The notes under the pieces are model-generated. The model made no database searches. It was not told the origin of the DNA and worked only from the letters and a program-made list of their open reading frames with translations. A DNA stretch of 64,000 bases, from the NCBI GenBank assembly GCA_016124955.1, contig WGMR01000004.1, positions 57,491 through 121,490 on the forward strand, written 5' to 3'. How positions within the stretch are numbered: the stretch's first letter is position 1; each line of letters begins with the position of its first letter. A program made the translations under genes and the position numbers. Below are positions 2,575 to 58,479 of the stretch, piece after piece. The DNA comes from Alphaproteobacteria bacterium. GTDB lineage: Bacteria > Pseudomonadota > Alphaproteobacteria > UBA9219 > RFNS01.

Positions 2575-4301
2575 CAGGAAAGCTTGATGCCAAGCCGCCG
2601 ATAGATAAAGAATTGCTGCGCGATGGAAATCAGGTTGCTGCAGGTCCAGTAAACGATCAGCCCCGAAGCCATGGTCGGCCCCAGCATGAAGGTGAACACG
2701 ATCGGCAGCAGGATAAAAACCTTGGCCTGCACCGGGTCGGCCGGCTGCGGGCTCATCTTCTGCTGCAAGAACATGCTGATGCCCATCAGGAGCGGCCAAA
2801 CGCCGATATGCATGAAGCCAAGGAACCCGGGCGCGTCATAAGGCAAAAGCCCGAACAGGTTGACGATCGTAGTCGGGTCCGGCGCGGAAAGATCGCGGAT
2901 CCAGCCGAAGAAAGGCGCATGCCGCATTTCGATCCCGACATACAAAACCTTGTAAAGCGCAAAGAAAACCGGGATCTGGAATAAAATCGGCACGCAGCCC
3001 GAAAACGGGCTGACCTTTTCGCGCTTGTACAATTCCATCATCTCCACGCTCTGGCGCGTGCGGTCGTCCTTGTAGCGTTCCGTCAGCTTCTTCATTTCCG
3101 GCTGAAGCTTCTTCATGCGCGCCATGGATGTGTAGGATTTAACCCCGAGCGGCAGCACGCAAAGCTTGACCAGCACGGTCAGCGCAATGATCGCGAGCCC
3201 TGTATTGCCGATGATCCCCGCCAGCCAGTCAAGCAGCTTCAAAAGCGGCTTGGTCAGGAAATAGAACCAGCCGAAGTCGATCGCGCGGTCGAAACGCGTG
3301 ATCGATAACGTCTCCCCGTAGCTATCGAGCAGGTTGACGAGCTTGGGCCCGGCAAACAAATGCGTGACATGCTCCACGCTGCCGCCGGGCGCCAGCTTCT
3401 GCGCGGGCCCGCGGAAATCGGTCTGATAGCGGCCATGCTTGGGCTCTTCGTTTTCTTCGCCCGAATATTTGAATTGCGCGACGATCTGTTCGTCCGCGCC
3501 CGGCACAAGCGCCACCAGCCAGTATTTGTCGGTGATCCCGAGCCAGCCGCCGGTGCCCGGCGTAGCGATTGTCTTTTCATCCACCAGCTTGTCATAGCTG
3601 TGTTCGTGCAAGGTGCCGTCGAATACGCCGGTGGGGCCCGTATGTGCGATGCTGATGGCGTCCTCGCCTTCCGGCACGCCATGGCGCAAAACCAGCCCAT
3701 AGGGATGCAGCGTGACCGCGCCCGCGCCCGTGCTGCGTGCGCCGTCGGTCATCGTGAACATCGCGTTTTCATCGACCGCGATCGTGCGCGTAAAGGTTAT
3801 GCCTTGTCCGTTATCCCATGTCAGCGTCAGCGGCTTATCCTGCGTCAATTCCTTGCCGGTCGCACGCCACAGCGTATCGTTATCAGGCAACGCCGTGCCG
3901 GGCGCGTCCGCGAGCCAGCCGAAGGCGGCGTAATAGGCGCGGTGCGGCGCAGCCGACCCGGGCGGCGACAGCAGCACGATCGGCGGGCTGCCGGGGTCTG
4001 CGGTTTCGCGGTATTGCGGAAGCGTCAGATCGTCGATCCGTCCGCCCCGCAGATTGACGCTGCCGCGGAGTGAAGGCGTGTTGATCTGCACGCGCGGGTC
4101 GTCGGCCAGCACGGCGGCGCGGTCGCGCAATTCGAGCTGCGCTTTTTCCTGTTTCTGCGTCTGTTCGAACTTTACAGATTCCTGCACAGCCTGTTGCGCG
4201 CGAAATTGTTCGATCCGCGGGCGTTCATAAAAGAAGTGAAAACCGAGCATGATCAGCACGGAAAGAATAACGGCGTATATAAGGCGCGTATTATCGACCA
4301 T
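2574..4301 (-). CDS. yidC: membrane protein insertase YidC
   Basis: Long periplasmic domain plus the conserved C-terminal 5-TM insertase core (...[24 protein letters not shown]...). Start placed at [14 protein letters not shown] (4301), which fits YidC N-termini; the upstream ATG at 4340 is the alternative. Confidence 0.85.
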
Positions 4302-8447: not shown

Positions 8448-10022
8448 GTGCAGCCATTTTCCTTGGAAAATCAATCGCACCGAGTCCATTCCGCCGAAGG
8501 AAAGAATCCATACGGCAAACCGGACGATAACCTTTCAAGGAACAGCCTCTTGAAATTCCTCTCTGGCTTGCGGCCGGTTCTCATAGCGCCATCCGATCAA
8601 ATAAGCTCCCTTGTCATCGCCGGTCTTTTGGCGATCGTCATAGGCGGCAGCGGCCATATGCTTGGCGCATCGGGCGGCACCGATTTGAATGTCGGCGTTT
8701 CGGATCTCGGCAAGATCGCGGCCGGCACGGAACCCGCACAAACCGCGGCAAGCGCGGCCACGCCATCGCCCGATACGCTGGCGGCCCCCGAAACGGTCAC
8801 CGCCACGCTTTCAAACCTGCGCGATTTCGCCGTCGCCGCGCTGCCCGCCGCAGTCAAGGAAGAGCCGAAAACGCTCGCCCGCCAGATCGAGATCAAGCGC
8901 GGCCATACGCTGGCACAAATTCTTGACGACGCCGATGTCGATGCCAACAACGCGCATGCGATCGTCGCGGCGCTGCGCCAGGTCTATGATTTACGCAGCC
9001 TGCGCGCCGGGCTCGATATGACCCTGCATTTCGCGCGCGCGCAGGGACAGGAAAAATTCACCGGCCTGACCTTCCAGCCCGGCCTGACCGAGGAAATCAC
9101 GGTCGCCCAGAACGCGGCGGGCGACGGCTGGGAAGCGGTTCGCGCCGAAACTCCGGTCGAACGCCACCGTTTTGCCGCGCACGGCAATATTTCTTCCTCG
9201 CTCTACGAAGCGGGCGACCGCGCGGGCGTGCCGCTGGCGGTGATGGCGGCCTTGATCCGTATCTACTCGCACGAGATTGATTTCCAGCGCGATTTGCGCG
9301 ACGGCGACGCGTTCGAGGTTATGTATGACCAGCCGATGCTGAAAAGCGGCCCGCAGGCCGGTACGGCGGTAGGCGAAGGTACGGTGATCTATGCCGCGCT
9401 CAAGGTCGGCGGCGTGCGCAAAACCGTTTACCGGGTGGTGTTTTCCGATAACACGGCCGAATATTTCAACGAACGCGGCGAAAGCATCCGGCGGGCGCTG
9501 CTGCGCACCCCGGTCGATGGCGCGCGCATGACATCCTCTTTCGGCATGCGCCGGCATCCGATTCTCGGCTATAGCAAAATGCACAAAGGCATCGATTTCG
9601 GCGCCCCCACCGGCACGCCGATCTATGCGGCGGGCGATGGCGTGATCGAAAGCATCGGCACCAACGGCAGCTATGGCCGCTATATCCGCATTCGCCATAA
9701 CGGCAAGATGGCGACGGCCTACGCGCATATGAAGCGTTTTTCTTCCAGCCTCAAGCGCGGCAGCAAGGTCAAGCAAGGCACCGTGATCGGCTATGTCGGC
9801 ACGTCGGGCCGTTCGACCGGCCCGCATCTGCACTACGAAGTGCTGATAAACCGCCAGCAGGTCAACCCGCTTAGCATCAACACCGCGGCGGGCCGCACGC
9901 TTGACGGGCGCATGCTCGCGCAGTTCAAGCAGGGCATCACCCAGATCAACGGCGAGTTCAAGAGCGTGCTCGCGGGCAAGAGCGGCACGCCCGCCGCGAT
10001 CCAGGTCGCCAGCAAGAAGTAA
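8448..10022 (+). CDS. M23-family (LytM-domain) peptidase with N-terminal membrane anchor
   Basis: C-terminal HKGIDFGAPTGTPIYAAGDG...GYVGTSGRSTGPHLHYEV metallopeptidase motifs. GTG start; exact start uncertain. Confidence 0.75.
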   Translation: MQPFSLENQSHRVHSAEGKNPYGKPDDNLSRNSLLKFLSGLRPVLIAPSDQISSLVIAGLLAIVIGGSGHMLGASGGTDLNVGVSDLGKIAAGTEPAQTAASAATPSPDTLAAPETVTATLSNLRDFAVAALPAAVKEEPKTLARQIEIKRGHTLAQILDDADVDANNAHAIVAALRQVYDLRSLRAGLDMTLHFARAQGQEKFTGLTFQPGLTEEITVAQNAAGDGWEAVRAETPVERHRFAAHGNISSSLYEAGDRAGVPLAVMAALIRIYSHEIDFQRDLRDGDAFEVMYDQPMLKSGPQAGTAVGEGTVIYAALKVGGVRKTVYRVVFSDNTAEYFNERGESIRRALLRTPVDGARMTSSFGMRRHPILGYSKMHKGIDFGAPTGTPIYAAGDGVIESIGTNGSYGRYIRIRHNGKMATAYAHMKRFSSSLKRGSKVKQGTVIGYVGTSGRSTGPHLHYEVLINRQQVNPLSINTAAGRTLDGRMLAQFKQGITQINGEFKSVLAGKSGTPAAIQVASKK

Positions 10023-36172: not shown

Positions 36173-37216
36173 TCAGGCTTTCCAGTTGCGCACCAGATCC
36201 ACAAGCTGCGCGACATGGTCCGGCGGCGTTGCGGGAAGGATACCGTGACCAAGATTAAAGATAAACGGGCCCCCTGCAAGGGCTTCCATAATGGAGGCAA
36301 CCTCGCGTACCAGCTTGCCCCCGCCCTCGAGCAATATTTCGGGCCGTAAATTGCCCTGTACCGGCCTGTCTTGCTGCAATTTGCGCGCGGCGGCCAGCGA
36401 TACGTCGCTATCTATGCCGATGGCGTCCGCGCCGCTGGCCGCGGCATAGCGGCCATAAAGCCCGCGCGCCCCGCGCGGGAAGCCGATTACGGGTATTTCC
36501 GGGTAATGCCGCTTGATCTCGGCGGTTATCTTTGCCGCCGGTCCGGTCACAAAACGGGTAAAAAGCGCCTCGTCGTGCGCCAGTAATCCGGCCCAGCTGT
36601 CGAATATCTGTAAAACCCCGGCGCCGGCGCTGATTTGCGCTATAAGATATTGCGCGCTTGCTTTGCAAAGCTGGTCTGAAAGCGCTGTCAGAAGATCCGG
36701 CTTTTCCTGCGCCCATTGCAGCGCACGGGCAAAGCCGCCGTTCTTGCCGCTTTTTCCGTCAATCATGTAGCAGGCTACCGTCCAGGGTGCGCCGCAAAAC
36801 CCTATCAGCGATGTTTTGTTGCCAAGTGCGGCGCGGACGGTTTTTATAGCCGCGCAGGTCGGCGCCGTTCCGGCTTCATCGTAAACAAGGTTCCACGCAC
36901 CGCTATCCTCGGGCAACGGGTCCAGACGCGGCCCTTCGCCTTCGGCAAAATCCAGTCTGCGGCCAAGGGCATGGGGAATAAGCAATATATCGGAAAATAT
37001 GATCGCGGCATCCAATCCGAAGCGCTTTACCGGCTGCAAGGTAACTTCGCTTGCCAGTTGCGGGTTTCCGCAAAGTTTCATGAAGCTCCCGGCCTGTTCC
37101 CGGACCGCACGATATTCGGGCAAATAACGTCCCGCCTGCCGCATCAGCCAGATCGGCGGCGGAGATGTGGCTTTGCCATTAAAAGTTTGTTCGAGCGTAC
37201 GCATTGAATTATCCAT
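36173..37216 (-). CDS. hemE: uroporphyrinogen decarboxylase
   Basis: ...PPIWLMRQAGRYLPEYR... HemE N-terminal signature. Confidence 0.9.
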   Translation of the reverse strand: MDNSMRTLEQTFNGKATSPPPIWLMRQAGRYLPEYRAVREQAGSFMKLCGNPQLASEVTLQPVKRFGLDAAIIFSDILLIPHALGRRLDFAEGEGPRLDPLPEDSGAWNLVYDEAGTAPTCAAIKTVRAALGNKTSLIGFCGAPWTVACYMIDGKSGKNGGFARALQWAQEKPDLLTALSDQLCKASAQYLIAQISAGAGVLQIFDSWAGLLAHDEALFTRFVTGPAAKITAEIKRHYPEIPVIGFPRGARGLYGRYAAASGADAIGIDSDVSLAAARKLQQDRPVQGNLRPEILLEGGGKLVREVASIMEALAGGPFIFNLGHGILPATPPDHVAQLVDLVRNWKA

Positions 37217-37606
37217 AGACGCGTTCTTCTATAATAAGAATATATAATAGATAGGAGTTGTAGGTTGGTCCTGTTGAAAATGGGTATGGAATGGCTTTTT
37301 AAGGGTTATGCGCTAAGTTATACGCAGGCTTTTTTTATAAGGCTTCAATATCCCTGTGGATCGAAACTGTGTAGCCATGTGTGCAAGTCCGCATATTGGC
37401 GCTAACCGAGGTTTGTGATTTTTGGGGGTAAACAAGGCCCTTGTTTTATCCCGGTTATACACAAGCGTGTTTGACATAACGGCTATCCTGTTGGGTAAAA
37501 GCGTGACAGTTTGTGCATGACAGGGATGATTTTCATGGGCCTGTGAAAAACCCGTTCTTGTCACCGTAATCCACAGGCACAGCGCAGGAAGGACAGAATA
37601 CCGGCA
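37205..37606. other. oriC: candidate chromosomal replication origin (Cori-type, between hemE and DUF299 gene)
   Basis: Roughly 390 bp non-coding, visibly AT-richer than its surroundings. DnaA-box-like 9-mers: TTATCCATA (37209-37217), GATCCACAG on the bottom strand (37354-37362), TTATACACA (37455-37463), TAATCCACA (37567-37575), and weak TTATCCCGG (37445-37453). AT tracts at 37224-37256. The location matches the conserved hemE|RP001(DUF299) origin site of Caulobacter and Rickettsia. Confidence 0.55.
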
Positions 37607-44466: not shown

Positions 44467-45831
44467 ATGTCTGAAAATCCCGCGCCCGCCAACAATGCCG
44501 CCGAAACCATCTTCGCACTTGCCTCCGCGCCCGGCCGCGGCGGTATTGCCGTTCTGCGCATATCGGGCCCGCAAGCGGGCGCCGCCGCTACGGCGCTTTG
44601 CGCCGCAACCCTGCCGCCGCCGCGCACGGCGGCGTTGCGCACATTGCGCCATCCCGGCACGAAAGAAATTATGGATCGTGCGTTGCTGTTCTGGTTTCCG
44701 GCGCCCGGCAGCTTCACGGGCGAAGACGTCGTCGAATTGCATGTGCATGGCGGCCGCGCGGTGACCGAAGCGGTGGCGGAAGCGTTACGCGCGCAGCCCG
44801 GCTTGCGCCATGCCGGACCGGGCGAATTTACCCGCCGCGGTTTTGAAAACGGCAAGTTCGATCTGACGGCGGCCGAAGCGATTGCCGATCTTGCGGCTTC
44901 GGAAACCGAAGCGCAGCGCAAACAGGCGTTGCGGCAAATGGACGGCGCGCTCGCGCGCCTGTATGACGGCTGGGCCGCGCGCCTGACCCGCGCGCTCGCG
45001 CATCTTGAGGCCGATATCGATTTCGCGGACGAAGACCTTCCCCCCGATGCGTACAATGCGCCGTTGGCCGAATTGCGGGCGATGGCGGGCGATATCGCAG
45101 CGCATCTGGCAGACAGGCGCGGCGAAAGTTTGCGCGAAGGCTTCCATATCGCCATTCTCGGCGCGCCCAATGCCGGCAAATCATCCTTGCTCAATGCGCT
45201 GGCGCGGCGCGAAGCGGCGATCGTCGCGGAACAGGCGGGCACGACGCGCGATGTGATTGAAGTGCGGCTCGATCTCGGCGGCTATCCGGTCACGCTTGCC
45301 GATACCGCCGGTTTGCGCGAAAGCGCCGACGCGGTGGAAAGCGAAGGCGTAAGCCGCGCGCTGGCGCGCGCCCGCGCGGCCGATCTTACGCTGCTGGTGT
45401 TCGATGCCGCCTTGCTCGCATCGACGCCGCCCGATGCCGCGACCTTGGCGCTGGCCGGCCCCGCCAGCATGGCGGTTTTGAACAAATCCGATATCGAGGG
45501 CGCGGCGAAAGCATTGTCCGCCCCCGTCGCATCGGTCCATCCGCTTTCCGCGAAAACCGGTGCGGGCATGGAAAACTTTATCGCCGCGCTTACCCAAACC
45601 GTGGCCGCGCGTCTTGCCGATACCGGTGCACCGTCCCTTACCCGTTCCCGCCACCGCGAAGCTTTGGAGGAATGTTGCGGGGCATTGTTGCGCGCATCGA
45701 TGGCGGTTGCGCCGGAATTGCGCGCGGAAGATGCCCGCCTTGCGCTGCGCGCGCTCGGGCGCATCACCGGCCGGGTCGATGTTGAAGATTTGCTCGATGT
45801 CATATTTCGCGATTTTTGTATCGGGAAATAA
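44467..45831 (+). CDS. mnmE: tRNA modification GTPase MnmE
   Basis: N-terminal THF-binding domain, G-domain (GAPNAGKSSLLNAL, DTAG) and C-terminal CIGK. Confidence 0.95.
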   Translation: MSENPAPANNAAETIFALASAPGRGGIAVLRISGPQAGAAATALCAATLPPPRTAALRTLRHPGTKEIMDRALLFWFPAPGSFTGEDVVELHVHGGRAVTEAVAEALRAQPGLRHAGPGEFTRRGFENGKFDLTAAEAIADLAASETEAQRKQALRQMDGALARLYDGWAARLTRALAHLEADIDFADEDLPPDAYNAPLAELRAMAGDIAAHLADRRGESLREGFHIAILGAPNAGKSSLLNALARREAAIVAEQAGTTRDVIEVRLDLGGYPVTLADTAGLRESADAVESEGVSRALARARAADLTLLVFDAALLASTPPDAATLALAGPASMAVLNKSDIEGAAKALSAPVASVHPLSAKTGAGMENFIAALTQTVAARLADTGAPSLTRSRHREALEECCGALLRASMAVAPELRAEDARLALRALGRITGRVDVEDLLDVIFRDFCIGK

Positions 45832-45969: not shown

Positions 45970-46527
45970 ATGGCCGCAAACAGCATTGACAGTTTCTTTT
46001 CTGGCGCCGGCAAACTTATGTTTGGCAGGCAGAACTGGGCGAGGACGACACGCGGCATTATTGTGTCCGGCCTTGCCGTCGGCGCCGTGGCAATGCCGGT
46101 CGCCAAGGCTTATTTAACCGGTAAAATCATCGCAGGCCTTACAGCGCTTTCCATCGCGGCGCCCACAGCTGCGGCCCTGGCGCCCACAATTCTTCTGGGC
46201 GCGGCGCTTTGCGTAGGCGCTTACGCCGCATGGGGCGCGGTTTCCGGCGTCGCCAACGTGACGATGGCGGTGCTCGGCGATAACATGTTCGGCAGGGCGG
46301 CGAAGGCCGTCGTTGAACATCCGCGCACGACCGCCTTCCTTGTTGGCGCGGGCCTGACCGCATTCGGCCTTGCGGCCCTGCTTATGCCTGGCTTTGCGGC
46401 GCTTATACCGCCGGCCGTTACGGCCTTCGGGCTCAACGGCGCGATGACTACGGCCGTTGCGGGCGCGGGTATTATGGGATTGTCCGCGAACGCAATGCGC
46501 AATGCCGGCATGACCGGCCCGCACTGA
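45970..46527 (+). CDS. hypothetical Ala/Gly-rich integral membrane protein
   Basis: AAAGGGG RBS. A TTGACA-like -35 sits in the AT-rich 140 bp upstream region. Multiple TM segments; T-ending codons are more frequent than in the core genes. Confidence 0.5.
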   Translation: MAANSIDSFFSGAGKLMFGRQNWARTTRGIIVSGLAVGAVAMPVAKAYLTGKIIAGLTALSIAAPTAAALAPTILLGAALCVGAYAAWGAVSGVANVTMAVLGDNMFGRAAKAVVEHPRTTAFLVGAGLTAFGLAALLMPGFAALIPPAVTAFGLNGAMTTAVAGAGIMGLSANAMRNAGMTGPH

Positions 46528-46554
46528 TTTTCAATATAGACGGATTGAAGAGGC

Positions 46555-47277
46555 TCAGAGCCCCTTGGCGAGCAGCGAGATGGCCGCCGCCACGAGCAGT
46601 ATGTTGATGGCGGCGCGAAACCTGTCTTCCGATATCAGGCGCGGAACCTTGTAGCCGACCGCGAGCCCCAGCAAATGCGCGGGCAAACAAATGAGCAACA
46701 ACGTCAGAATTTCCCCATGATACATGCCGGCCGTGCCGCTGAGCGCGCAACGCAACGCATTGCCTGCGAACAAAATCAACAGAACGCTTGCCCGGAATGT
46801 TTCCTTGTTCAGCGAAAGGGTTTTCAAATAAGTCACGATAAAGGGCCCGCCCATGCCCGATATGCCCGAAACTACCCCGCCTGCCGCGCCCGCCGCCGCC
46901 TGCGCCGCCACGTTTTTCACGCCGCGCAATTGCGGAAACTTCAGCCGCGCGCCCGCCGCGACATAAAAAACCAAATAGCCGGCCAGCACGAAGTTAAGCA
47001 GGCTGTCATCGACCGTGTTGAGCAAAAACAAGCCGAGCGCGGAGGCGGCAGGGAAAACCACGGCGATCACGCCGATTCCCTTCCAATCGATATGACGCCA
47101 GATAAAAGGCAGGAGTACGCCTTTGAGCGCCTGAAACACAAGGAAAAGCGTCACGCTGTCCTTGATGCCGAACATGAGACTAAGCAACGGCACGGCGACA
47201 AGACCGCCGCCAAAACCGAACGTGGCCTCGACAAGCGAGGTGGCAAAAACGATAACGACACTCAGGAAAATTTCCAT
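46555..47277 (-). CDS. TauE/SafE-family sulfite/organosulfonate exporter
   Basis: Two-repeat 4+4 TM topology with the conserved Gly-rich GFGGG segment near the N-terminus (FGFGGGLVAVPLL), PF01925-like. Confidence 0.8.
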   Translation of the reverse strand: MEIFLSVVIVFATSLVEATFGFGGGLVAVPLLSLMFGIKDSVTLFLVFQALKGVLLPFIWRHIDWKGIGVIAVVFPAASALGLFLLNTVDDSLLNFVLAGYLVFYVAAGARLKFPQLRGVKNVAAQAAAGAAGGVVSGISGMGGPFIVTYLKTLSLNKETFRASVLLILFAGNALRCALSGTAGMYHGEILTLLLICLPAHLLGLAVGYKVPRLISEDRFRAAINILLVAAAISLLAKGL

Positions 47278-47331
47278 GCGCTTTTATGGCAGGAAAAGCG
47301 CCGGGTGGGAAATTTGTATGATAGTCCGGGT

Positions 47332-48048
47332 TTAGTGTGCCGGCGCGTAGTCGCCGCTGAAATCGACGTCGCTTTTCACGAGCCGGAGATGCGGAACACT
47401 TTTCTTCTGCGCCGCCCTGGTTTCCGCTTTTTGTTGTTCGACCAAGGCTTCGGCCTCGCTCACAAGATAATCCGCGACCATTGCCAGTTCCTGCGCGATG
47501 CTTACTTGGTCCTGCGGGTCGCTCAGCTCGATGTAATCGATATTAAATTCGCGCAACGTGTTGCAGCAATGCAGGCTGCTGACAAGCAGCGAAAGATCGT
47601 GGAACAGGGTGCCGATGCGCGTCGCCATCGCGCGCATGCGCGTCTTGGCCGGGCCGGTCGCGAGCCCGCAGCGCGTCAGCGCATGGATGAAATCGTTGCC
47701 GAAAATCATGGCATCCGGCGCGATGCCGTGCTGGCCGTCTTCGTTGTTGCGGCCGCGCGTGATCCACGCGCGCATCTGTTCACGCACGGCGGTGTTGCCA
47801 TCACCCGCGCCGCCAACCTCGCCGTCCGGGTCAAGTCTGGTGGGCAGCCATGCCAGTTCATCGAGCTGGTGACGGATCGCGCGCATGCCCATGCGCTCGG
47901 CCTGCATATAAGCGAAGGCGTATTCGTCGCGGCTGCAATCGGCCGAAAGGCTATGCGCGGCCAAAATGGCCTCGCGTTCGCCGGCGATGCGCTCCTTGGC
48001 GGCCATCAGAAGGCCGCGCACTTCATCGATATGTAATTCGGTGGCCAT
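47332..48048 (-). CDS. hypothetical protein (239 aa)
   Basis: ORF from MATELHIDEVRGLL...; several HxxxE/ExxH-type spacings. No confident family. Confidence 0.5.
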   Translation of the reverse strand: MATELHIDEVRGLLMAAKERIAGEREAILAAHSLSADCSRDEYAFAYMQAERMGMRAIRHQLDELAWLPTRLDPDGEVGGAGDGNTAVREQMRAWITRGRNNEDGQHGIAPDAMIFGNDFIHALTRCGLATGPAKTRMRAMATRIGTLFHDLSLLVSSLHCCNTLREFNIDYIELSDPQDQVSIAQELAMVADYLVSEAEALVEQQKAETRAAQKKSVPHLRLVKSDVDFSGDYAPAH

Positions 48049-48354
48049 GGGCCTGTTCCGATCCCTTGTTTCGCGGCACCGGGCCGCAAAGCCCGAAATA
48101 ACCGCACAAAGGTTAATTTTAACCAAAATATATCCATAAATTGTTAAGCCACAGCTTTAACAATCAATCATTAAACATATGATATATAACAATAATTTTT
48201 GTGTCATTGGCCTTATGGGTGCCTTTGCGGCTAAGACGCTGATATCCCTGCCTGTCTCAAAATTTTTTTTAATTGTGCAACAAAAGTTCGTTAAATATCG
48301 CCATCAGCGCACATTCTTTGCGCGCGCGGGCGTTTCGCCCTATACCTTCCGGCC

Positions 48355-50214
48355 ATGCAGGATTTTGATGTCATCATTGTTGGCGGTGGCCATGCGGGCT
48401 GTGAGGCCGCCGCCGCGGCCGCGCGGCTTGGCGCGCATACGCTGCTTGCTACGCATAAGCCTGAAACCATAGGCGAAATGTCGTGTAACCCGGCAATCGG
48501 CGGGCTCGGGAAGGGCCATTTGGTTCGGGAAATTGATGCGCTGGATGGCGTCATGGGCCGGGTGGCTGACCGCGCGGGGATCCAGTTTCGGCTTTTGAAC
48601 CGTAGCAAGGGCGCTGCCGTGCAAGGCCCGCGCGCGCAGGCGGACCGAAAACTTTATCGCCGCTATATGCAGGAAGTGCTCGGCAGTCAGCAAAACCTTT
48701 CCATTCGCGCCTGCGCCGTGGGCGATCTGATCGTTGGCGCCGATAACCGTATCGAAGGTATCGTGACCGAGCAGGGCGAAGTGCTGCGTGCCGCAGCCGT
48801 TGTGATTACGACGGGCACGTTCCTGCGTGGCCTTGTTCATATCGGTGCCGAAAAGATACAGGCTGGCCGTATAGGTGAAGCGCCATCCACGAAGCTTTCG
48901 GCCACGCTTGCACGGCTCCGGCTCGCGCTTGGCCGGCTCAAAACCGGTACACCCCCGAGGCTCGATGGCCGGACGATCGATTGGGCCGGGCTTGAAATGC
49001 AGCCGGGCGACGAACCGCCTATACCCTTCTCGACCCTAACATCCGCGATCACAAATCCCCAGGTTTGCTGCGGCCTGACCTACACATCTGCCGACACGCA
49101 CAACATGATCCGCGCCAACCTCGACCGCTCGCCGATTTATTCGGGACAGATCGAAGGGACGGGCCCGCGTTATTGCCCTTCGATCGAAGACAAGGTTGTG
49201 CGTTTTGCAGACAAGGAACGGCATCAGATTTTCCTCGAGCCCGAAGGGCTAGACGATCACACCGTATATCCAAACGGCATCTCAACATCGCTGCCGCGTG
49301 ATGTGCAGGATGCACTCGTGCGATCCATACAAGGTCTTGAAAATGTTAGTATTTTGCGCCACGGCTATGCGGTTGAATATGACTATGTCGATCCCCGGGA
49401 ACTGACCGCATCGCTCGAAGTCAAGCGCGCGCCCGGGCTTTTTCTGGCGGGACAAATCAACGGCACCACGGGCTATGAGGAAGCGGCGGCACAGGGGCTG
49501 ATTGCCGGGCTGAATGCTGCGCTCAAGGCAAGCGGCAGCTCGCCCTTCACCCTTTCCCGCACGCAAGCCTATATCGGCGTGATGATCGACGATCTGATTT
49601 CCCGTGGCACCGCCGAGCCTTACCGCATGTTCACAAGCCGCGCCGAATACAGGCTTAAGTTACGGGCAGACAATGCCGACCAGCGCCTTACCCCGGCGGG
49701 CCTGGAGCTCGGATGCGTGGGGCCAGAAAGACGGCAGAAATTCACGAGCAAGATGAGCGAGCTGGCCCGCGCGCGGACGATGGCTGAAGGATTTTCTGCC
49801 AGCCCAACCGCGCTTGTGAAACAGGGCGTGCACATCAACCAGGATGGGGTGCGGCGTAGCGCCATGGATTTGCTGGCCTATCCCGATGTTTCACGTGAAA
49901 CATTGACCAGAATTTGGCCACAACTATCTGATATTAAAACAGAAATTTTGAATCAAATCGAGACAGATGGCCGCTATGCCGGCTATATGGACAGACAGGA
50001 TGCCGATATTCGGGCCTTCGAGAAGGATGAAGCTTTGCGACTGCCGGCCGACCTGGATCTCGATGCCATCGGCGGGCTTTCGGCTGAGGTACGGCAAAAA
50101 CTGGCGCAGGTACGTCCGCAGACGCTTGGTGCGGCCGCGCGCATTCCGGGGGTTACGCCAGCGGCCACCCTGGCACTCTTGCGCTATGTTAAACGCAGTA
50201 AAAAAGCAGCATAA
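48355..50214 (+). CDS. mnmG: tRNA uridine 5-carboxymethylaminomethyl modification enzyme MnmG (GidA)
   Basis: [22 protein letters not shown] fold, full-length GidA. Confidence 0.95.
49887..49902. promoter_or_regulatory. parS: parS centromere site (TGTTTCACGTGAAACA)
   Basis: Perfect 16-bp palindrome identical to the ParB-binding consensus; lies inside the mnmG 3' region (encodes DVSRETL). Confidence 0.75.
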
Positions 50215-50235
50215 TCAACAATATAGGTGATATTT

Positions 50236-50970
50236 ATGACCGATGTTTCACGTGAAACATTCCTGACCCATTTTCCCGATGTTTCACGTGAAACATTGGA
50301 CAAGCTCGATCGCTATGCCGCGATGCTTACCGAATGGCAAAAGAAGATGAACTTGGTTGGTCCGGGCACGTTGTCCGAGATATGGACCCGCCATTTTCTG
50401 GATAGCGCGCAATTGATGCCATACCTGCCGCAATGGACCAGAAGCGTGACCGATATTGGCAGCGGTGCAGGTTTTCCCGGCATGGTGCTGGCAATTTTGG
50501 GTGCGCCACACGTAAACCTTATTGAAGCAACCCAGAAAAAGGCCCGTTTCCTTGAGGCGGTGGCAACAGAGCTTGGGCTTGAGGTGCATATTCATGCCGA
50601 GCGGTCCGAGCTTGTGCGCAACATACGGTCAAGCGTTGTGACGGCGCGTGCCGTGGCGCATATGGATGAGCTGATTCCCTATGCTTTCCCGTTTCTGGAT
50701 AAGGGCGGGATCATGATTTTCCTTAAGGGTCAGCATGTTGAAGAAGAATTGACAGCGGCAGCCAAAGATTGGCACTTTGAAGCCAGCAGGCATGCTAGCC
50801 TTAGCGATCCTTCCGGATTCGTATTGGTGTTGCAGGGCGTCGGCCATAATCAAAGCACCCGCAAGGATGTCCGTTGGCGCGGGCTGGGGCATGTGACCAA
50901 GGCGGGCGTTTCGACGCAAAAAGTTGTGACCCCGCCGCCGAAGCCGGAGCCCGACCCGGAGCCGAAATAG
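50236..50970 (+). CDS. rsmG: 16S rRNA (guanine527-N7)-methyltransferase RsmG (GidB)
   Basis: VSRETLDKLDRYAAMLTEWQKKMNLV...DIGSGAGFPG SAM-methyltransferase motif. Unusual Pro/Glu-rich C-terminal tail (VVTPPPKPEPDPEPK). Confidence 0.9.
   Translation: MTDVSRETFLTHFPDVSRETLDKLDRYAAMLTEWQKKMNLVGPGTLSEIWTRHFLDSAQLMPYLPQWTRSVTDIGSGAGFPGMVLAILGAPHVNLIEATQKKARFLEAVATELGLEVHIHAERSELVRNIRSSVVTARAVAHMDELIPYAFPFLDKGGIMIFLKGQHVEEELTAAAKDWHFEASRHASLSDPSGFVLVLQGVGHNQSTRKDVRWRGLGHVTKAGVSTQKVVTPPPKPEPDPEPK
50244..50259. promoter_or_regulatory. parS: parS centromere site (TGTTTCACGTGAAACA)
   Basis: Perfect consensus palindrome in the first codons of rsmG. Confidence 0.75.
50280..50295. promoter_or_regulatory. 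parS: parS centromere site (TGTTTCACGTGAAACA)
   Basis: Third perfect copy, 36 bp after the second, also within the rsmG 5' coding region. Confidence 0.75.
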
Positions 50971-51070
50971 GCGGGAGGACGGAAACAGGACCGCGCGATT
51001 GTAGTAATGTGTTATTATAATAATACAGTTTGCAGAAAGCCATAACCCGAAAGCAGCAAGGAAGCGCCGC

Positions 51071-51925
51071 ATGAGCTCAGATCAAACCAAGTCCGGCGGC
51101 GTCGCGCCCGGCATCACGCCGCCCGAACGGTGCCGCATCATCGCGATCGTTAATCAGAAAGGCGGGGTCGGCAAAACCACCACCACCGTCAATCTCGCGA
51201 CCGCGCTTGCCGCCGTCGGCATGCGGGTGCTGGTGGTCGATCTCGATCCGCAGGGCAACGCATCCACCGGTTTCGGCGTGCCGCGCAGCGCGCGCGAGCG
51301 TGGCGGCTATGAGATGATTTTCGACGGCATGAGCGTGGAAGACGTTGCGGCGGCGACGCCCATTCCGGGTTTGCAGATCGTGACATCCTCGGCCGACCTT
51401 GCGGGCGCCGAGATCCAGCTCGTGAACGCCGAGCGGCGCGAGAGCCGCTTGCGCGAAGCGCTCGAGCGCAGCGAAAAGGATTTCGATTACATCCTGATCG
51501 ATTGCCCGCCCTCGCTGAACCTTTTGACGCTCAATGCGCTCGTGGCGGCGCATAGCCTGATCGTGCCGCTGCAGGTGGAGTTCTATGCGCTGGAGGGCAT
51601 CAGCAACCTTGTGCAAACCGTGGAAGCGGTGCGCACGCGCTTTAACCCGGGGCTTGTGATCGAAGGCGTGGTGCTGACCATGTTCGACCGCCGCAACGCG
51701 CTTTCGGAAGCGGTTGCGAAAGACGTGCGCGATTATTTCGGTGACCGCGTTTTCACCACGGTGATCCCGCGCAATGTTCGCATTTCCGAAGCGCCTTCGC
51801 ACGGCAAGCCGGTTCTGCTTTACGATCTGAAATGCCCGGGTTCGCGCGCCTATATGCATCTCGCGAGCGAGGTTTTGAAGCGCGAAGGCAGGCCGCTGGG
51901 CGCGAGCGAAAGCGCCGTGGCGTAA
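51071..51925 (+). CDS. parA: chromosome partitioning ATPase ParA
   Basis: Deviant Walker A (NQKGGVGKTTT). Confidence 0.9.
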   Translation: MSSDQTKSGGVAPGITPPERCRIIAIVNQKGGVGKTTTTVNLATALAAVGMRVLVVDLDPQGNASTGFGVPRSARERGGYEMIFDGMSVEDVAAATPIPGLQIVTSSADLAGAEIQLVNAERRESRLREALERSEKDFDYILIDCPPSLNLLTLNALVAAHSLIVPLQVEFYALEGISNLVQTVEAVRTRFNPGLVIEGVVLTMFDRRNALSEAVAKDVRDYFGDRVFTTVIPRNVRISEAPSHGKPVLLYDLKCPGSRAYMHLASEVLKREGRPLGASESAVA

Positions 51926-51944: not shown

Positions 51945-52928
51945 ATGACCAACAAAACCAACGCAGCGCTGAAAGATACGGGCAAGCCGGCCCCGCTGGG
52001 CCGCGGGCTCGCGGCGCTGTTCGGCGATGCCGACGCATCCTATCAGCAAGCGCCGGGCGCGCCTGCTACCGCTTCGGGCGCCGCCGCGCAAAGCCCCGCG
52101 CCGCAAACCGCGCCGCAAACCGCGCAGCAAAAAAGCCCGCAAACCATGCCGCTAAGCTGGCTGCAGCCCGGCCGCTTCCAGCCGCGCCGCCAGTTCGACG
52201 AAACCGCTTTGCGCGAACTTGCGGCTTCGGTGCGCGCGCGCGGCGTGCTGCAACCGCTGCTGGTGCGGCCGCTTGCCGAAAAAAATTCATACGAGATTGT
52301 GGCGGGCGAGCGCCGCTGGCGCGCCGCGCAGATCGCGGGCGTGCATGACGTGCCGGTGGTCGTGCGCGCGCTTTCGGACAAGGAAACGCTTGAGGTCGCG
52401 CTGGTCGAAAACATCCAGCGGCAGGACCTTAGCGCGGTCGAGGAAGCGGAAGGTTACCAGCGCCTGATGGATGAATTTTCCTATACGCAGGAAGACCTGG
52501 CCAAGACCGTGGGCAAGAGCCGCAGCCATGTGACCAACATGCTGCGCCTGCTTGGGTTGCCGCAAACGGTAAAAGATATGCTGGCCAGCGGCGCGCTCAG
52601 CCCCGGCCATGCGCGCGCGCTGATCGCGACCGACGACCCCGAAGCGCTGGCGAAGGCTATTGCGGAAAACAGCCTTTCGGTGCGCGATGCCGAAGCGCTT
52701 GCCAAGCGGCATGGCGACGGCAAGGCGCGGCAGGGCAAGAAAGCCGGCAAGGCGCAAAAGCGCGGCGAGATCCGCACCGCGGACGTGATCGCGCTCGAGC
52801 GCGATCTGGCCGCCACGCTCGGGCTCAAGGTTGCGCTCAAGGCCCGCACCGACGGCAGCGGGACGCTGACGGTGGCGTACAAGGATCTCGAGCAGCTCGA
52901 CGGGTTGATCGGGAAGTTGCGGGGGTAA
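51945..52928 (+). CDS. parB: chromosome partitioning protein ParB
   Basis: ParB box (GERRWRAAQIAG), HTH and C-terminal dimerisation region. Three parS sites lie about 2 kb upstream. Confidence 0.9.
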   Translation: MTNKTNAALKDTGKPAPLGRGLAALFGDADASYQQAPGAPATASGAAAQSPAPQTAPQTAQQKSPQTMPLSWLQPGRFQPRRQFDETALRELAASVRARGVLQPLLVRPLAEKNSYEIVAGERRWRAAQIAGVHDVPVVVRALSDKETLEVALVENIQRQDLSAVEEAEGYQRLMDEFSYTQEDLAKTVGKSRSHVTNMLRLLGLPQTVKDMLASGALSPGHARALIATDDPEALAKAIAENSLSVRDAEALAKRHGDGKARQGKKAGKAQKRGEIRTADVIALERDLAATLGLKVALKARTDGSGTLTVAYKDLEQLDGLIGKLRG

Positions 52929-53017: not shown

Positions 53018-54031
53018 TTACCGCGCCACGGTGACGAGCGCCTGGGCGCAAACGGTTTCGGCGGGGATGCCGGTGCTTTTGCATTGCGCTTCCGCTTCGG
53101 CAAGGTGGACCAGCGCACGGGCGAGCCGCTCCGCGCTCCAGCGCTGCAGCTGCCGCACCATCGGCGTTTCGTGTTTCCAGAAAACGGGCGGGCGCAGCGA
53201 TTTGATCGCGTCGGTCGCGGTGCGGCCGCTATCCAGCGCCGCGCGCGCGAGCTGCAGGCGCAGCAAGTGCCGCTGCACCGTGCGCAGCAGCATCACGAAC
53301 GACATGTTTTCGGAAAGCAGCCGTTGCGCCAGCCGCGCCACCTCCCCCGGCGCGCCCGCGCCCACAGCCATCGCCAGCGCATCGAGCTCGGCCGCGCCGC
53401 CGTCGCCCAGCGCTTCGGCCACGTCGGCGCGCGAAATTTTTTGCCGCCCCATCGCGTAGATGGAAAGCTTTTCAAGCTCGCTTTTCAGCGCCATGCGATC
53501 GGCCGGCGCGGTTTCGGCCAGCAGGTCGAGCGCATCGCCGTCCGCCTCGAACCCCTGTTCGCGCAAAAGCGTGGCGATGGTGCGGCGTCGCGCCGGGCCG
53601 TCTTCGGTATAGCAGGCGATCGCCGCCGTCTCCGACCCGCCGCCCTCGCACAGTTTGCGTAATTTGGAATTTTTGCCGAGATCGCCGGCCTCGATCACAA
53701 GCAGCGTGTCGGTTCCCGGCAGGTTGGCGAGCAGGTTGGTGAGCGCGAGCGCGAGCCCGTCGCCCGCGCCCTGTATGTGCACGAGCCGCCGCCCGCCGGA
53801 AAGCGATTGCGCCGCCATTTCATCCATCAAAAGCGCAGGGTCTTCCGCCACCGTGCCGGGCGCGGGCGTAGCGACGCGGAACGGATCGTCCGCCGTTTCG
53901 CACGCGGTGCGCGCCAGCAAAAGGCCGCGCTCGCGCACGAGGCCGGCATCCGGCCCATAAACCAGCGCGACGCGCAGCGCGGCATCCGGGCTTTTCACAA
54001 AACTGTCGGTGCGGGCGGGCGCGATCTTCAT
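53018..54031 (-). CDS. holA: DNA polymerase III subunit delta
   Basis: Typical HolA length and N-terminal AAA-like fold (ALVYGPD...). Its start overlaps the upstream gene's stop. Confidence 0.8.
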   Translation of the reverse strand: MKIAPARTDSFVKSPDAALRVALVYGPDAGLVRERGLLLARTACETADDPFRVATPAPGTVAEDPALLMDEMAAQSLSGGRRLVHIQGAGDGLALALTNLLANLPGTDTLLVIEAGDLGKNSKLRKLCEGGGSETAAIACYTEDGPARRRTIATLLREQGFEADGDALDLLAETAPADRMALKSELEKLSIYAMGRQKISRADVAEALGDGGAAELDALAMAVGAGAPGEVARLAQRLLSENMSFVMLLRTVQRHLLRLQLARAALDSGRTATDAIKSLRPPVFWKHETPMVRQLQRWSAERLARALVHLAEAEAQCKSTGIPAETVCAQALVTVAR

Positions 54032-55281
54032 GACGGCACCGGCCCCGCTGGCGCGGCGGGCTGTTCGGGCTGCGGCGCGGGCGTTTCGCCGCCGTTATTG
54101 CCGCCGCTGTCGCCGCCGTCATCCTGCGCCGCGCCGGGATCGTTGCCGGATTCAATCGGGCAGGCTTGCGCGCCCGTTCCGGGCGGCAAATCGTTCAGCG
54201 CGGCGATATCGGCCCAGTATGCGCTTTTGCGCAAACGGCAAGTGAAGGATGCGAGGAATTCGGCGCGCCCCGCGATATCTTCTGGCCATTTGGCATCGAG
54301 TACTGCGATCGCCGCGGGCCAGCGACCGGCGTAGATATATTCGAGCATGATATCCCACAGCGCGACGGGCGGCAGCGGCGTGACGATGGTCGGGCCCACA
54401 AGCATGGTGTTGAAGGCCGGTTCCATCACCCAGTCTTCGGGCGCGATTTCCTGTTCGCGCTCGCGGATGCGCGCTTCATTCGCGCCGCGGCGCTTCATCA
54501 TCGCGCCGGAAAACCTGTAGCTGTCGGACGCCGCGTCGTAGGCGAAGATCACGCTCGGCATCGGCGAGCCTGCGAAGCTGGTGTTCCAGTAGGCGAATAC
54601 GGTATCGGCGGTGACAACCGACCAGGCTTCGGCCCCGTCGATGCGTTTTATTTCGGTGCCCGCATCCCCCGTGGGCAGCGTGAGCAAACGTTTGTAGCCG
54701 CCGGGCGCGAGCCGCGCGATGTAGGTCGTGTTGCAGCAATGCGCGCCGCCGGACCATGCCGTGATCACAAGCTCGTTCGCTTCGCCGCCCGTTATGGCCG
54801 CGAGCGGAAGCTCGTCGTTGTCCGGCATTGCGGGCGCTTCATTTTGTTCCGCTTCGTCTGTGTTTTCATTCGCATCCTCGCCAAGCCCGACCCATTCGAG
54901 CGATACGAGCTGGTCTTCGATCATATCGCGAATGGTGCCGCCGCGGCGGACCACGATTTTCTGGCTTTGCGCGAGGCCGGGGGAGCCATCGGGCTCCGGC
55001 GCCGTCCATTGTTCGACCGTGAAATCCTTATAGTCCCAGGATTTCTGGAGCTGCCAATCGAGCAAGGCTTCTTCGGGGCTTTGTGTTTGCGCGCCGCCAT
55101 CTTGCGCGGCTTCCGTGCTTGCGGGTTCGGTTGCTTTCCGGTCGTTGTTGGCCGCCCAAAACCATGGCTGCGTTTCCTGCGCATGGGCCGGCAGCGCCAG
55201 AGGCACAATAAAAAGGGCGAGGATAACGGGGCGGAGCATGGCGGGCATCATAACGCGTAATACGGCACGGCGTAAGCGCAT
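54028..55281 (-). CDS. secreted hypothetical protein with acidic low-complexity regions
   Basis: Signal peptide (...ALFIVPLALPAHAQ). Inserted between lptE and holA in the leuS-lptE-holA operon context. No family recognised. Confidence 0.5.
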   Translation of the reverse strand: MRLRRAVLRVMMPAMLRPVILALFIVPLALPAHAQETQPWFWAANNDRKATEPASTEAAQDGGAQTQSPEEALLDWQLQKSWDYKDFTVEQWTAPEPDGSPGLAQSQKIVVRRGGTIRDMIEDQLVSLEWVGLGEDANENTDEAEQNEAPAMPDNDELPLAAITGGEANELVITAWSGGAHCCNTTYIARLAPGGYKRLLTLPTGDAGTEIKRIDGAEAWSVVTADTVFAYWNTSFAGSPMPSVIFAYDAASDSYRFSGAMMKRRGANEARIREREQEIAPEDWVMEPAFNTMLVGPTIVTPLPPVALWDIMLEYIYAGRWPAAIAVLDAKWPEDIAGRAEFLASFTCRLRKSAYWADIAALNDLPPGTGAQACPIESGNDPGAAQDDGGDSGGNNGGETPAPQPEQPAAPAGPVPS

Positions 55282-55312
55282 CCCACCAGCGATTTGCGGT
55301 TTTTTTGCGGCT

Positions 55313-55840
55313 TTAACGGCTTGCCGGCGCTTTATCCATATTGGCCATGAACAGGCTAATACGGTTAATGAGCTTGTTTGATATATCGCGCAGCGCGCGA
55401 TCTTGCGCATTCTTTTCCGCAGCCAGCACCGCGTATTGCGCATCGACCCTGTTGTAGCTGGCGATGGCGTTGGTGTCGCCTTCAAGCAAGACCTTGCCGC
55501 TTGCCCTGTCGGAAAGCGCATAATGCGCCAGCATGTTCAGCTGCGACCGCGCCGAGGTGGCGTCTTTCCGGATCGCGAGATCGGCTTCGTAGCTTGTCAG
55601 CTTTACATCGAGCCGGTAATCGGTTTGCGCCGGGCGGCCGCCTATATACATGCGATCGATCAGCATGTTGCGTAATTTCTGGCCCGCGCGATCTTCGATA
55701 TTCTCGATATAAATACGGTTCATCTTTGCAGCCGTAGGCGCATCCGCACCCCCAGCGCCCGGGCCATAAACGGGGCTGAAACCGCAAGCGGCGAGCAGGA
55801 ACGCAAGGGCCGGAAGAAGGATGAGGCGACGGCGGGTCAT
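55313..55840 (-). CDS. lptE: LPS-assembly lipoprotein LptE
   Basis: Lipobox LLAACG; about 175 aa; the position directly downstream of leuS (4-nt overlap) is the conserved place for lptE. Confidence 0.65.
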
Positions 55841-58479
55841 GCCACAATGTTCACGATTTTATCGGGCACCACAATCACTTTCCGCGGCGCCGCGCCGGCA
55901 AGGATGCGCTGCACGTTTTCTTCGGCCAGCGCCGCCGCTTCCGCGCGCGCCTTGTCCGTTCCCGCGGGCAGCGTGATGGTGGCGCGCAGCTTGCCGTTCA
56001 CCTGCACCGCCATGGTGACCGTATCGCTGACGAGCAGGGTTTGATCCGCCTTCGGCCACGGCGTTTCGCACAGCATGGTTTTATGGCCGAGCCGCTGCCA
56101 CATTTCTTCGGCGATATGCGGCAGCATAGGGCCGACAAGCTGCGTCAGCGCTTCAAGCCCTTCGCGCAGCGCCCAGGCATCGCCCGCGTCGCTGCCGCCC
56201 GTCTCGCCGAGCGCGGCAAGCGCGTTCGATAGTTCGCGCACGCGCGCGACCGCCTTGTTGAAATGGAAGCGATCGTAATCGACCGTAATATCGGCGATGG
56301 TGCGGTGGATTTTGCGCCGCGCTTCCTGCGCGGCTTCGCTTAGTTTTGCGGGCATGGCCGTGCCTGCTGCCGGCAGCGGCAGCGCCGGTTCCACCACCAG
56401 GCGCCACAGGCGGCCCAGATAGCGCCATGCGCCGTCCACGCCGGCTTCGGTCCATTCAAGATCGCGTTCGGGCGGGCTGTCGGACAGCGTGAACAGGCGC
56501 GCGGTATCGGCGCCGTAGCTGCCGATGATGCGGCCGGGATCGACCACATTGCGCTTCGATTTGCTCATGACCTCGACGCGGCCGACCGTGACCGGCTTTT
56601 TCGTATCGACATGCTGCGCCGTGCCGTCCGGATTTTTGACGATCTCTTCGGGGTACAGCCATTTCCCTGCTTCGTCCTTGTAGGATTCGTGGCAGACCAT
56701 GCCTTGGGTGAACAGGCCGGTGAAGGGTTCGTCGATTTTCAGATGCCCGGTTTTTTTCATCGCGCGCGTGAAAAAGCGGGAATAAAGCAGATGCAGGATC
56801 GCATGCTCGACCCCACCGACATACTGATCGGCCGGCAGCCAGTAATCGCACGCCGCCGCATCGAGCGGCGCGCTTTCAAGCCCGGCGGAGCAGTAGCGCG
56901 CGAAATACCAGCTGCTATCGACGAAGGTATCGCAGGTATCGGTTTCGCGCACGGCCTTCGCGCCGCACGCGGGGCACGATACATTTTTCCAGGTCGGATG
57001 GTTGGCGAGCGGGTTGCCCGGCTTTTCAAGATCGACATCTTCGGGCAGCGTAACCGGCAGATCGGCGGAAGCGACCGGCACGGGCCCGCATTTCTCGCAG
57101 TGGATGATGGGAATGGGGCAGCCCCAGTAACGCTGGCGGCTGACGCCCCAATCGCGCAGACGGAAAAGCGTTGTGCCCTTGCCCGCACCCTGTTTTTCGA
57201 TTTGCGCGATCGCCGCCGCCTTGGCGGCTTCGACTTCCATGCCATCAAGGAATCCCGAATTTTGCAGCACGCCGGGGCCGGTATAGGCTTCATCGCCCAC
57301 CTTGAAGGCGGCGGCGTCTTCCCCCGCCGGGATCACGACAGGCTTAACCGGAAGATTATATTTGCGCGCGAAATCAAGATCGCGCTGATCGTGCGCGGGG
57401 CAACCGAAGATCGCGCCCGTGCCATATTCCATCAGGACAAAATTGGCGACATAGACCGGCAGGCGCCAGTTCGCATCGAAAGGATGCGCGACCATAAGGC
57501 CGGTATCGAAACCTTGTTTTTCCGCGGTTTCCAGCGCCGCCTCCGACGTGCCGGTGCGGTTGCATTCTTCGATGAAGCGCGCGAGCTGCGGGTTTTTTTC
57601 CGCGCAGGCGGCGGCGAGCGGATGGCCGGGCGAAAGCGCAAGGAACGACGCGCCGAACAGCGTATCGGGGCGCGTCGTGAAAACTTCTATATCGTTAGCG
57701 CGACTGCTCTGCGCTTCGCCAGCTTTTTGATTGCTCGCATGCGCTTCGCGCAACCGCGATTGCGCCTCATCGTCCGACAATTTGAAGCGCAACTGTGCAC
57801 CCTGCGATTTGCCGATCCAGTTTTCCTGCATCAGCCGGACCTTTTCCGGCCAGCGGTCGAGCGTGCCCAGCGCGGCAAGCAATTCGTCGGCGTAATCGGT
57901 AATTTTCAAAAACCATTGCGCGAGCTTGCGCTTTTCCACGAGCGCGCCGGAGCGCCACCCCCTGCCCTCGATCACCTGTTCGTTGGCGAGCACGGTGTTA
58001 TCGACCGGATCCCAGTTCACCACGCTTTCCTTGCGGTACACCAGCCCGGCCTTCATGAAATCGATGAACAGTTTTTGCTGGTGCTTGTAGTAAGCGGGAT
58101 CGCAGGTCGCGAGTTCGCGCGACCAATCGAGCGCGAGGCCCATGCGCTTCAGTTCGCCGCGCATGGTGTCGATATTACCGTAGGTCCATTTGGCCGGGTG
58201 GGTTTTGCGCTCGCGCGCCGCATTCTCGGCCGGCAGGCCGAAAGCATCCCAGCCCATGGGGTGAAGCACGTTGAACCCTTGCGCGCGCTTGGTGCGTGCC
58301 ACCACATCCGACAGCGTATAATTGCGCACATGGCCCATATGAATACGCCCCGAAGGATAGGGAAACATGGAAAGCACGTAATATTTCGGGCGCGCTTTAT
58401 CCTCGATCGCGCGGAAGGATTGCTTTTCCTCCCAGATCTTTTGCCATTTCTCTTCGGTTTCGGCGGGGTTGTAACGCAT
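55837..58479 (-). CDS. leuS: leucine--tRNA ligase
   Basis: HMGHVRNY (HIGH) and VMSKSKRN (KMSKS); 880 aa. Confidence 0.95.

Follow-up and report, generated by a model that had tools for sequence, protein, structure and literature searches.

Three perfect parS sites inside mnmG and rsmG form a probable centromere cluster in an uncultured alphaproteobacterium

Why should one 16-bp palindrome occur three times, always in frame, inside two conserved genes? The question is raised by a stretch of DNA from an uncultured alphaproteobacterium (64,000 nucleotides of contig WGMR01000004.1, assembly GCA_016124955.1, positions 57,491 to 121,490; hereafter the window), in which mnmG (gidA) and rsmG (gidB), the genes ahead of parA and parB, carry exact copies of TGTTTCACGTGAAACA. 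We find that the three copies are very probably functional parS sites, the nucleation points of the chromosomal ParABS complex. The copy at rsmG codon 15 appears to be an ancient anchor, and the other two (one in mnmG, one at rsmG codons 3-8) appear to be lineage-specific and most likely born in place.

Three palindromes and their partner proteins

The 16-mer occurs exactly three times in the window (parS-1 to parS-3, Table 1). Only 0.01 matches with up to two mismatches are expected there by chance, and three copies arose in none of 100 shuffles. The mismatch spectrum of the whole window (three sites with no mismatch, none with one to four, seven with five) indicates that the 64 kb holds three clean sites and no degenerate versions of them; a search at up to five mismatches around the cluster and upstream of mnmG found none with fewer than five. 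All three match exactly the palindrome of chromosomal parS, TGTTTCAC-GTGAAACA, the consensus used in the biochemistry and crystallography of Caulobacter ParB (10.1101/724823). As the initial annotation had it, they fall within about 400 bp (409 bp in all), and the two copies in the first codons of rsmG, at codons 3-8 and 15-20, stand 36 bp apart, start to start. Every copy is read in frame as GAT GTT TCA CGT GAA ACA, giving D-V-S-R-E-T at D511-T516 of MnmG and at D3-T8 and D15-T20 of RsmG. A 22-nt core, CCGATGTTTCACGTGAAACATT, is common to all three, and parS-1 and parS-3 are identical over 25 nt.

Two of the initially reported positions need adjustment. The mnmG copy does lie inside that gene, but 310 nt (about 103 codons) ahead of the stop, which puts it in the C-terminal domain and not at the extreme 3' end; and the cluster is upstream of parA and parB, at 0.8-1.2 kb from the parA start and 1.65-2.06 kb from the parB start, where about 1-2 kb had been given. 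A lone half-site, GTGAAACA, is present at 49816-49823 in mnmG, 71 bp ahead of parS-1; by chance, 64 kb would contain one or two copies of such an 8-mer.

A complete parA-parB pair adjoins the sites. The ParB aligns best with Caulobacter ParB (6T1F, E = 2.7e-61) and contains PF02195, PF17762 and PF23552, the C-terminal dimerisation domain included. It has the LGRGL N-terminal motif at residue 18, the GERRWRA box of the CTP-binding domain at 121 and the helix-turn-helix GKSRSHV at 190. Its DNA-contact residues are all conserved (Q182, G190, K191, S192, N198 and R224), and its specificity positions R193, M199, G204 and G221 follow the RXXG pattern (R173, x179, x184 and G201 in Caulobacter). This class is highly parS-specific, the corresponding Noc residues being Q173, K179, K184 and R201 (10.1101/724823). 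Binding sites for Noc (TATTTCCC-GGGAAATA) were considered and rejected, because the sites have the parS sequence and this ParB has R/M/G/G at the Noc positions; the NCBIfam Noc model scores it at 225 bits, below the cut-off of 315. A REP-like or mobile repeat was likewise ruled out, since the copies number only three and each sits in frame in a conserved gene. In the 5' region of parB, a 12-bp periodic repeat (CCGCAAACCGCG-like, 52089-52165) encodes a low-complexity A-P-Q-T linker that sits between the ParA-interaction motif and the N-terminal domain.

The spelling of the sites points to selection on the DNA. The DVSRET codons are rare in this genome of 61% GC: TCA makes up 5% of Ser codons, ACA 9% of Thr, CGT 11% of Arg and GTT 18% of Val. 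Under local codon usage, the probability of this exact spelling is 4e-5 per site, and it is observed at three sites out of three. We compared the window with L001, a 1.4-kb contig from another sample whose RsmG is 63% identical, which is also the identity of the nearest RsmG relative in a search of 5.8 billion proteins. Identical residues use the same codon in 10 of 10 cases inside the sites and in 48 of 114 outside them (Fisher p = 3e-4). In other lineages, the same 16-mer is read as FHVK(Q/H) in another frame or lies in intergenic DNA beside the same genes. Together, the rare codons, the codon identity and these differently framed or intergenic copies indicate that the peptide follows from the DNA site and not the reverse. 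DNA-level selection beyond coding constraint thus keeps the parS sites, and the DVSRET peptides look like the price paid by the proteins for the DNA sites, not conserved protein motifs.

The initial proposal that the sites probably form the centromere is well supported by the parS-specific residues of ParB, the adjacent parAB and the DNA-level conservation. By analogy with Caulobacter and Bacillus, CTP-bound ParB dimers would recognize each palindrome through the helix-turn-helix, then form closed clamps that slide into the neighbouring mnmG-rsmG-parAB DNA. Once loaded, ParB would stimulate nucleoid-bound ParA, by which the origin region would be moved, and three sites within 409 bp would raise the local rate of ParB loading.

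An anchor site and its changing companions

How old is each site? We compared about 85 alphaproteobacterial loci, with 80 genome loci centred on rsmG used for site positions. In most of these 80, an anchor parS with zero to two mismatches lies at rsmG amino acid ~14-15, and an N-terminal VSRET is found in 90 of 120 RsmG homologues; it occurs twice at the N terminus only in the window and in homologue P0002. The V-S-R-E-T peptide had been described as conserved at every copy. All three copies encode it, but it is conserved only at rsmG codon 15; the 120 nearest homologues all lack it at the mnmG position.

Additional sites are more scattered. Many loci have one just upstream of mnmG, where the window genome has none; others have one between mnmG and rsmG, at -38, -49, -55 or -72 from the anchor, or at rsmG amino acid ~108. 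Within the C-terminal domain of MnmG, sites occupy alignment columns 62-67 in the FHVK frame (L165, L171, L176, L186, L190 and L191) or columns 71-76 in the VSRET frame (L142, L156, L170, L174, L175, L185 and L200). The position of parS-1, columns 112-117, is otherwise occupied only in L161, a distant metagenome-assembled genome (MAG), with one mismatch (DVSHET). Three perfect sites are also present in L208, which belongs to the closest clade (P0030); located at 3263, 3938 and 4045, they correspond to mnmG amino acids ~405 and ~630 (by coordinates) and to the anchor. Auxiliary sites inside mnmG come and go in at least three, and probably five, different places. In L208, three extra small genes are inserted between parA and parB.

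At the parS-1 position, the 120 nearest MnmG C-terminal homologues have the consensus (A/R/S)YP(D/E/G)(I/V)(D/S/T)(L/W/F)(A/E)(R/Q)L. The site places an Arg where 106 of the 120 have L, W, F, I or M, so that the MnmG of the window has Arg at a normally hydrophobic residue. Taken together, these comparisons suggest that the cluster is one old anchor site at rsmG codon 15 plus a turnover of auxiliary sites, a pattern that fits the finding in Caulobacter that new parS sites are tolerated only close to the native cluster (PMC5815017).

The anchor itself varies in some 'VSHET' lineages, where it reads TGTTTCACATGAAACA, with a second site TGTTTCATATGAAACG in L207 (sites at 1948 and 4045) and AGTTTCACATGAAACT in L209 (4051). 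Here the centre of parS may have shifted, and one may ask whether ParB has co-varied with it. An AT-rich alphaproteobacterial MAG (SIG52, L197) has three perfect parS at 9965, 10003 and 10041, at 38-bp spacing at the rsmG 5' end and without a common frame.

The arrangement resembles characterized systems in most respects. Caulobacter crescentus has seven clustered parS near parAB, and clustering has been proposed to raise ParB density (PMC5815017). The window shares with it a closely similar ParB, the same 16-mer, sites within a few kilobases of parAB and ~10 kb from a hemE-side origin (a predicted one in the window), and strong sites that lie close together (in Caulobacter, a 260-bp segment contains sites 3 and 4). 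It differs in having three predicted sites, all perfect and all in coding sequence; in placing two of them in frame in the first 20 rsmG codons; and in having no weaker degenerate sites in 64 kb. Hyphomonas neptunium has two perfect parS upstream of the parAB operon, ~7 kb from hemE, with ParB binding seen by electrophoretic mobility shift assay (PMC6650430), and perfect consensus sites upstream of parAB are likewise present in the window. Two MAG loci of uncertain family, L171 and L186, have a Hyphomonas-like pattern of one site in mnmG and one in rsmG; unlike the window, their mnmG site is ~50 codons further upstream, in the FHVK frame, and rsmG lacks the tandem pair. In Bacillus subtilis, Lin and Grossman reportedly described in 1998 a parS inside spo0J, the classic case of parS within coding sequence. 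Both are centromere sites inside an open reading frame (ORF) of the par/gid cluster, but the host gene and phylum differ, and spo0J is said to hold a single site.

Close spacing of perfect sites is not peculiar to this genome. A metagenome scan found close pairs or triples, 22-60 bp apart, on at least 120 contigs; unlike the window pair, those among the matches listed are nearly all intergenic or without a common frame, and none of the 120 contigs listed has an in-frame pair at the RsmG N terminus. A recurrent gut-metagenome locus (L005, L022, L039, L041, L056, L081 and others) carries, in non-coding DNA, three perfect parS spaced exactly 39 bp apart and dominates the spacing histogram of close pairs among the matches listed.

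Origin and role of the rsmG pair

The pair is old. On L001, which begins ~40 nt downstream of the parS-1 position and covers the rsmG pair, both rsmG sites are perfect and 36 bp apart. The 20-nt spacer between them differs from that of the window at 7 positions; perfect sites in spite of such spacer changes and of the 63% identity of RsmG imply that the pair has been maintained. A search with the MnmG C-terminal domain recovered no mnmG piece of the sister lineage with the parS-1 position. Direct repeats of 22 nt placed 36 bp apart would be expected to suffer in-frame deletion through slippage; that they have persisted suggests that selection favours two sites.

The initial annotation took the duplicated DVSRET(F/L) peptide for a protein-level footprint of site duplication. 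A 36-bp tandem duplication of the anchor, followed by flank divergence and by loss or resetting of the N terminus, would explain why the copies are in frame, exactly 12 codons apart, with a common 22-nt core; why 10 of the 20 nt upstream of the second copy match the spacer in the window (P ~0.02); and why the sequence MT + DVSRET + FLTHFPDVSRET can be read as a duplicated FLTHFPDVSRET unit with its first half truncated. We nevertheless consider this origin unlikely. The RsmG N terminus is no longer than that of relatives: the anchor VSRET follows 15 residues in the window and 14-17 in most close relatives (P0004, P0005, P0008, P0010, P0016 and P0030), so that there is no net 12-codon insertion relative to single-copy homologues. 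The spacer F-L-T-H-F-P (F-L-x-H-F-P) is homologous to the F-L-x-x-F-P that precedes VSRET in relatives, and opposite the upstream V-S-R-E-T-F the relatives have x-x-R-(E/D)-x-F. The repeat units are alike only within the 22-nt core: in the flanks, 10/20 and 8/20 positions match in the window, and in L001 the matches, 4/20 and 4/20, are at chance level (random mean 5.2/20). Nor did 72 other loci show a remnant copy at -36 from the anchor, the mean of 12.65 mismatches in 16 being that of random sequence. parS-1, which is not part of any tandem array, has a longer common flank with parS-3 than parS-2 has; this 25-nt identity indicates that shared P-D and L codons need no tandem duplication. The second sites at -38, -49, -55 and -72 in other lineages argue for repeated independent gains.

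The unchanged N-terminal length, the homologous spacer, the chance-level flanks in L001 and the missing remnant thus leave a simple tandem duplication unsupported, and conversion in place is the more likely and more parsimonious account, although not a proven one. The auxiliary sites would have arisen by point mutation in partly compatible peptides, YP-D-V/I-S/D-x-x-x-L in MnmG and x-x-R-E-x-F in the RsmG N-terminal extension. parS-2 lies outside the conserved RsmG domain: the Pfam match begins at residue 22, and PDB structures align no earlier than residue 17. The alignment with B. subtilis GidB starts at residue 17 and sets S-P-R-Q-L against S-R-E-T-L.

Several points count against this reading of the sites and of their origin. 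The 10/20 match upstream of parS-2, four positions of which fall in a shared CCGA, leaves some room for an old duplication. Turning x-x-R-E-x-F into VSRETF needs several nucleotide changes, and intermediate states were not found. The 25-nt identity of parS-1 and parS-3 takes in a CCC (Pro) and a TTG (Leu) codon, for which chance codon coincidence is only a moderate explanation. The scan for parS covers the 64-kb window, on a MAG contig of 129,704 bp, and distant copies are possible. The cluster is probably ~12.5 kb (12.3-12.7 kb) from the origin of replication (oriC), a distance that depends on a predicted oriC.

Could the rsmG pair be primarily regulatory, either as a ParB operator on rsmG-parAB or as a hairpin that throttles rsmG translation, with the centromere role left to the other site or sites? 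The two palindromes are predicted to pair in the transcript as a 22-bp stem that begins 2 nt past the AUG (minimum free energy -42.5 kcal/mol, z -6.0), the pair is conserved in L001, and ParB-mediated repression near parS is described in Pseudomonas aeruginosa (PMC5521831). We regard such a primary role as improbable. Any two parS palindromes in one mRNA give such a stem automatically, and selection of its own is not required to explain it; a search of 49500-51300 found no sigma-70-like promoter on the plus strand; Rfam, tRNA and promoter scans returned nothing relevant to the stem, with no Rfam family match; and close perfect parS pairs are common and mostly intergenic in metagenomes.

That VSRET is a conserved RsmG/MnmG protein motif and the parS likeness a coding by-product, as its recurrence near the N terminus of 90 of 120 RsmG homologues might suggest, is effectively refuted by the rare TCA, ACA, CGT and GTT codons used every time (joint P = 4e-5), by codon identity of 10/10 inside the sites against 42% outside, by MnmG homologues without the motif at the parS-1 position, by the 16-mer in the FHVK(Q/H) frame and in intergenic DNA of other lineages, and by S-P-R-Q-L at the aligned position of non-alphaproteobacterial RsmG; a full-text literature search found no paper on a VSRET motif.

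Returning to conversion in place, we propose a fuller account, to which we give about even chances. Point mutations in helix-start peptides of the form [D/G]-[V/I]-S-x-x-x-L would repeatedly give rise to auxiliary sites within mnmG and rsmG, and these would turn over around one ancient anchor. The second in-frame rsmG site would have become fixed here and long been held despite the 22-nt repeat and the 22-bp stem, which would imply that selection favours two loading sites close together; rsmG translation may be affected as a by-product.

Gene neighbourhood and significance

The oriC of Alphaproteobacteria typically lies beside hemE, and the window has an AT-rich gap next to this gene (Table 1). 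Three of the window's eight DnaA-box-like 9-mers fall at 37209, 37455 and 37567. The 2-kb bin that holds the gap has a GC content of 0.553, and the cumulative GC-skew minimum lies one bin earlier, at 34-36 kb. The sequence CTGTGGATC occurs at 37355 in the gap.

Table 1. Positions of the parS sites and of neighbouring features in the window
Feature	Position	Strand	Basis	Remark
hemE	36173-37216	-		adjoins AT-rich gap
probable oriC	37217-37606			AT-rich gap between hemE (minus) and kinase/pyrophosphorylase gene
mnmE	44467-45831	+	family match	
mnmG (gidA)	48355-50214	+	TIGR00136, 828 bits	host of parS-1
parS-1	49887-49902		perfect palindrome in mnmG, D511 third base through T516	apparent lineage-specific auxiliary site
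rsmG (gidB)	50236-50970	+	TIGR00138, 135 bits; PF02527	host of parS-2 and parS-3
stem in transcript, 22 bp	50240-50299	+	inverted repeat	50240-50261 predicted to pair with 50278-50299
parS-2	50244-50259		perfect palindrome, rsmG codons 3-8	in variable N-terminal extension; upstream member of in-frame pair
parS-3	50280-50295		perfect palindrome, rsmG codons 15-20	apparent ancestral anchor, same position in most Alphaproteobacteria
parA	51071-51925	+	AAA_31/CbiA/ParA families	deviant Walker-A partition ATPase, KGGVGKT
parB	51945-52928	+	ParB_N + HTH_ParB + ParB_C	
holA	53018-54031	-	family match	
lptE	55313-55840	-	gene calls of L204	
leuS	55837-58479	-	family match	

The start of rsmG, an ATG at 50236, is preceded by a Shine–Dalgarno-like AGGTGA at 50225-50230 and is the same in the public record (P0001, L205). 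At its other end, RsmG has a C-terminal extension of ~35-40 residues (50850-50967) that relatives are without and that ends proline-rich (…VVTPPPKPEPDPEPK). The gap of ~2.5 kb between mnmE and mnmG holds, within 45970-48126, a TauE-family gene (46555-47277, minus strand) and an unknown minus-strand gene in the public gene calls (L205); a plus-strand ORF of 453 amino acids at 46675-48036 matches no family and is probably not a real gene. Between holA and leuS, a minus-strand ORF of 497 amino acids (54028-55521) also has no family match, and the public calls (L204) place there a 407-amino-acid unknown protein and LptE.

On these comparisons, the cluster is best described as an ordinary alphaproteobacterial centromere cluster, in which only the two in-frame sites within the opening 20 codons of rsmG are unusual. 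Our understanding of the ParABS mechanism is unchanged by it. For annotation, the sites would mark the centromere of an uncultured alphaproteobacterium and, with hemE, point to its origin region. They also offer a clear case in which DNA-level selection overrides protein preference, with rare codons fixed and an Arg in place of a normally hydrophobic MnmG residue. How parS clusters grow was left explicitly open by Tran et al. (PMC5815017); the comparison made here suggests a route for such growth, in which a fixed anchor persists and auxiliary sites may come and go nearby at half-compatible peptides.

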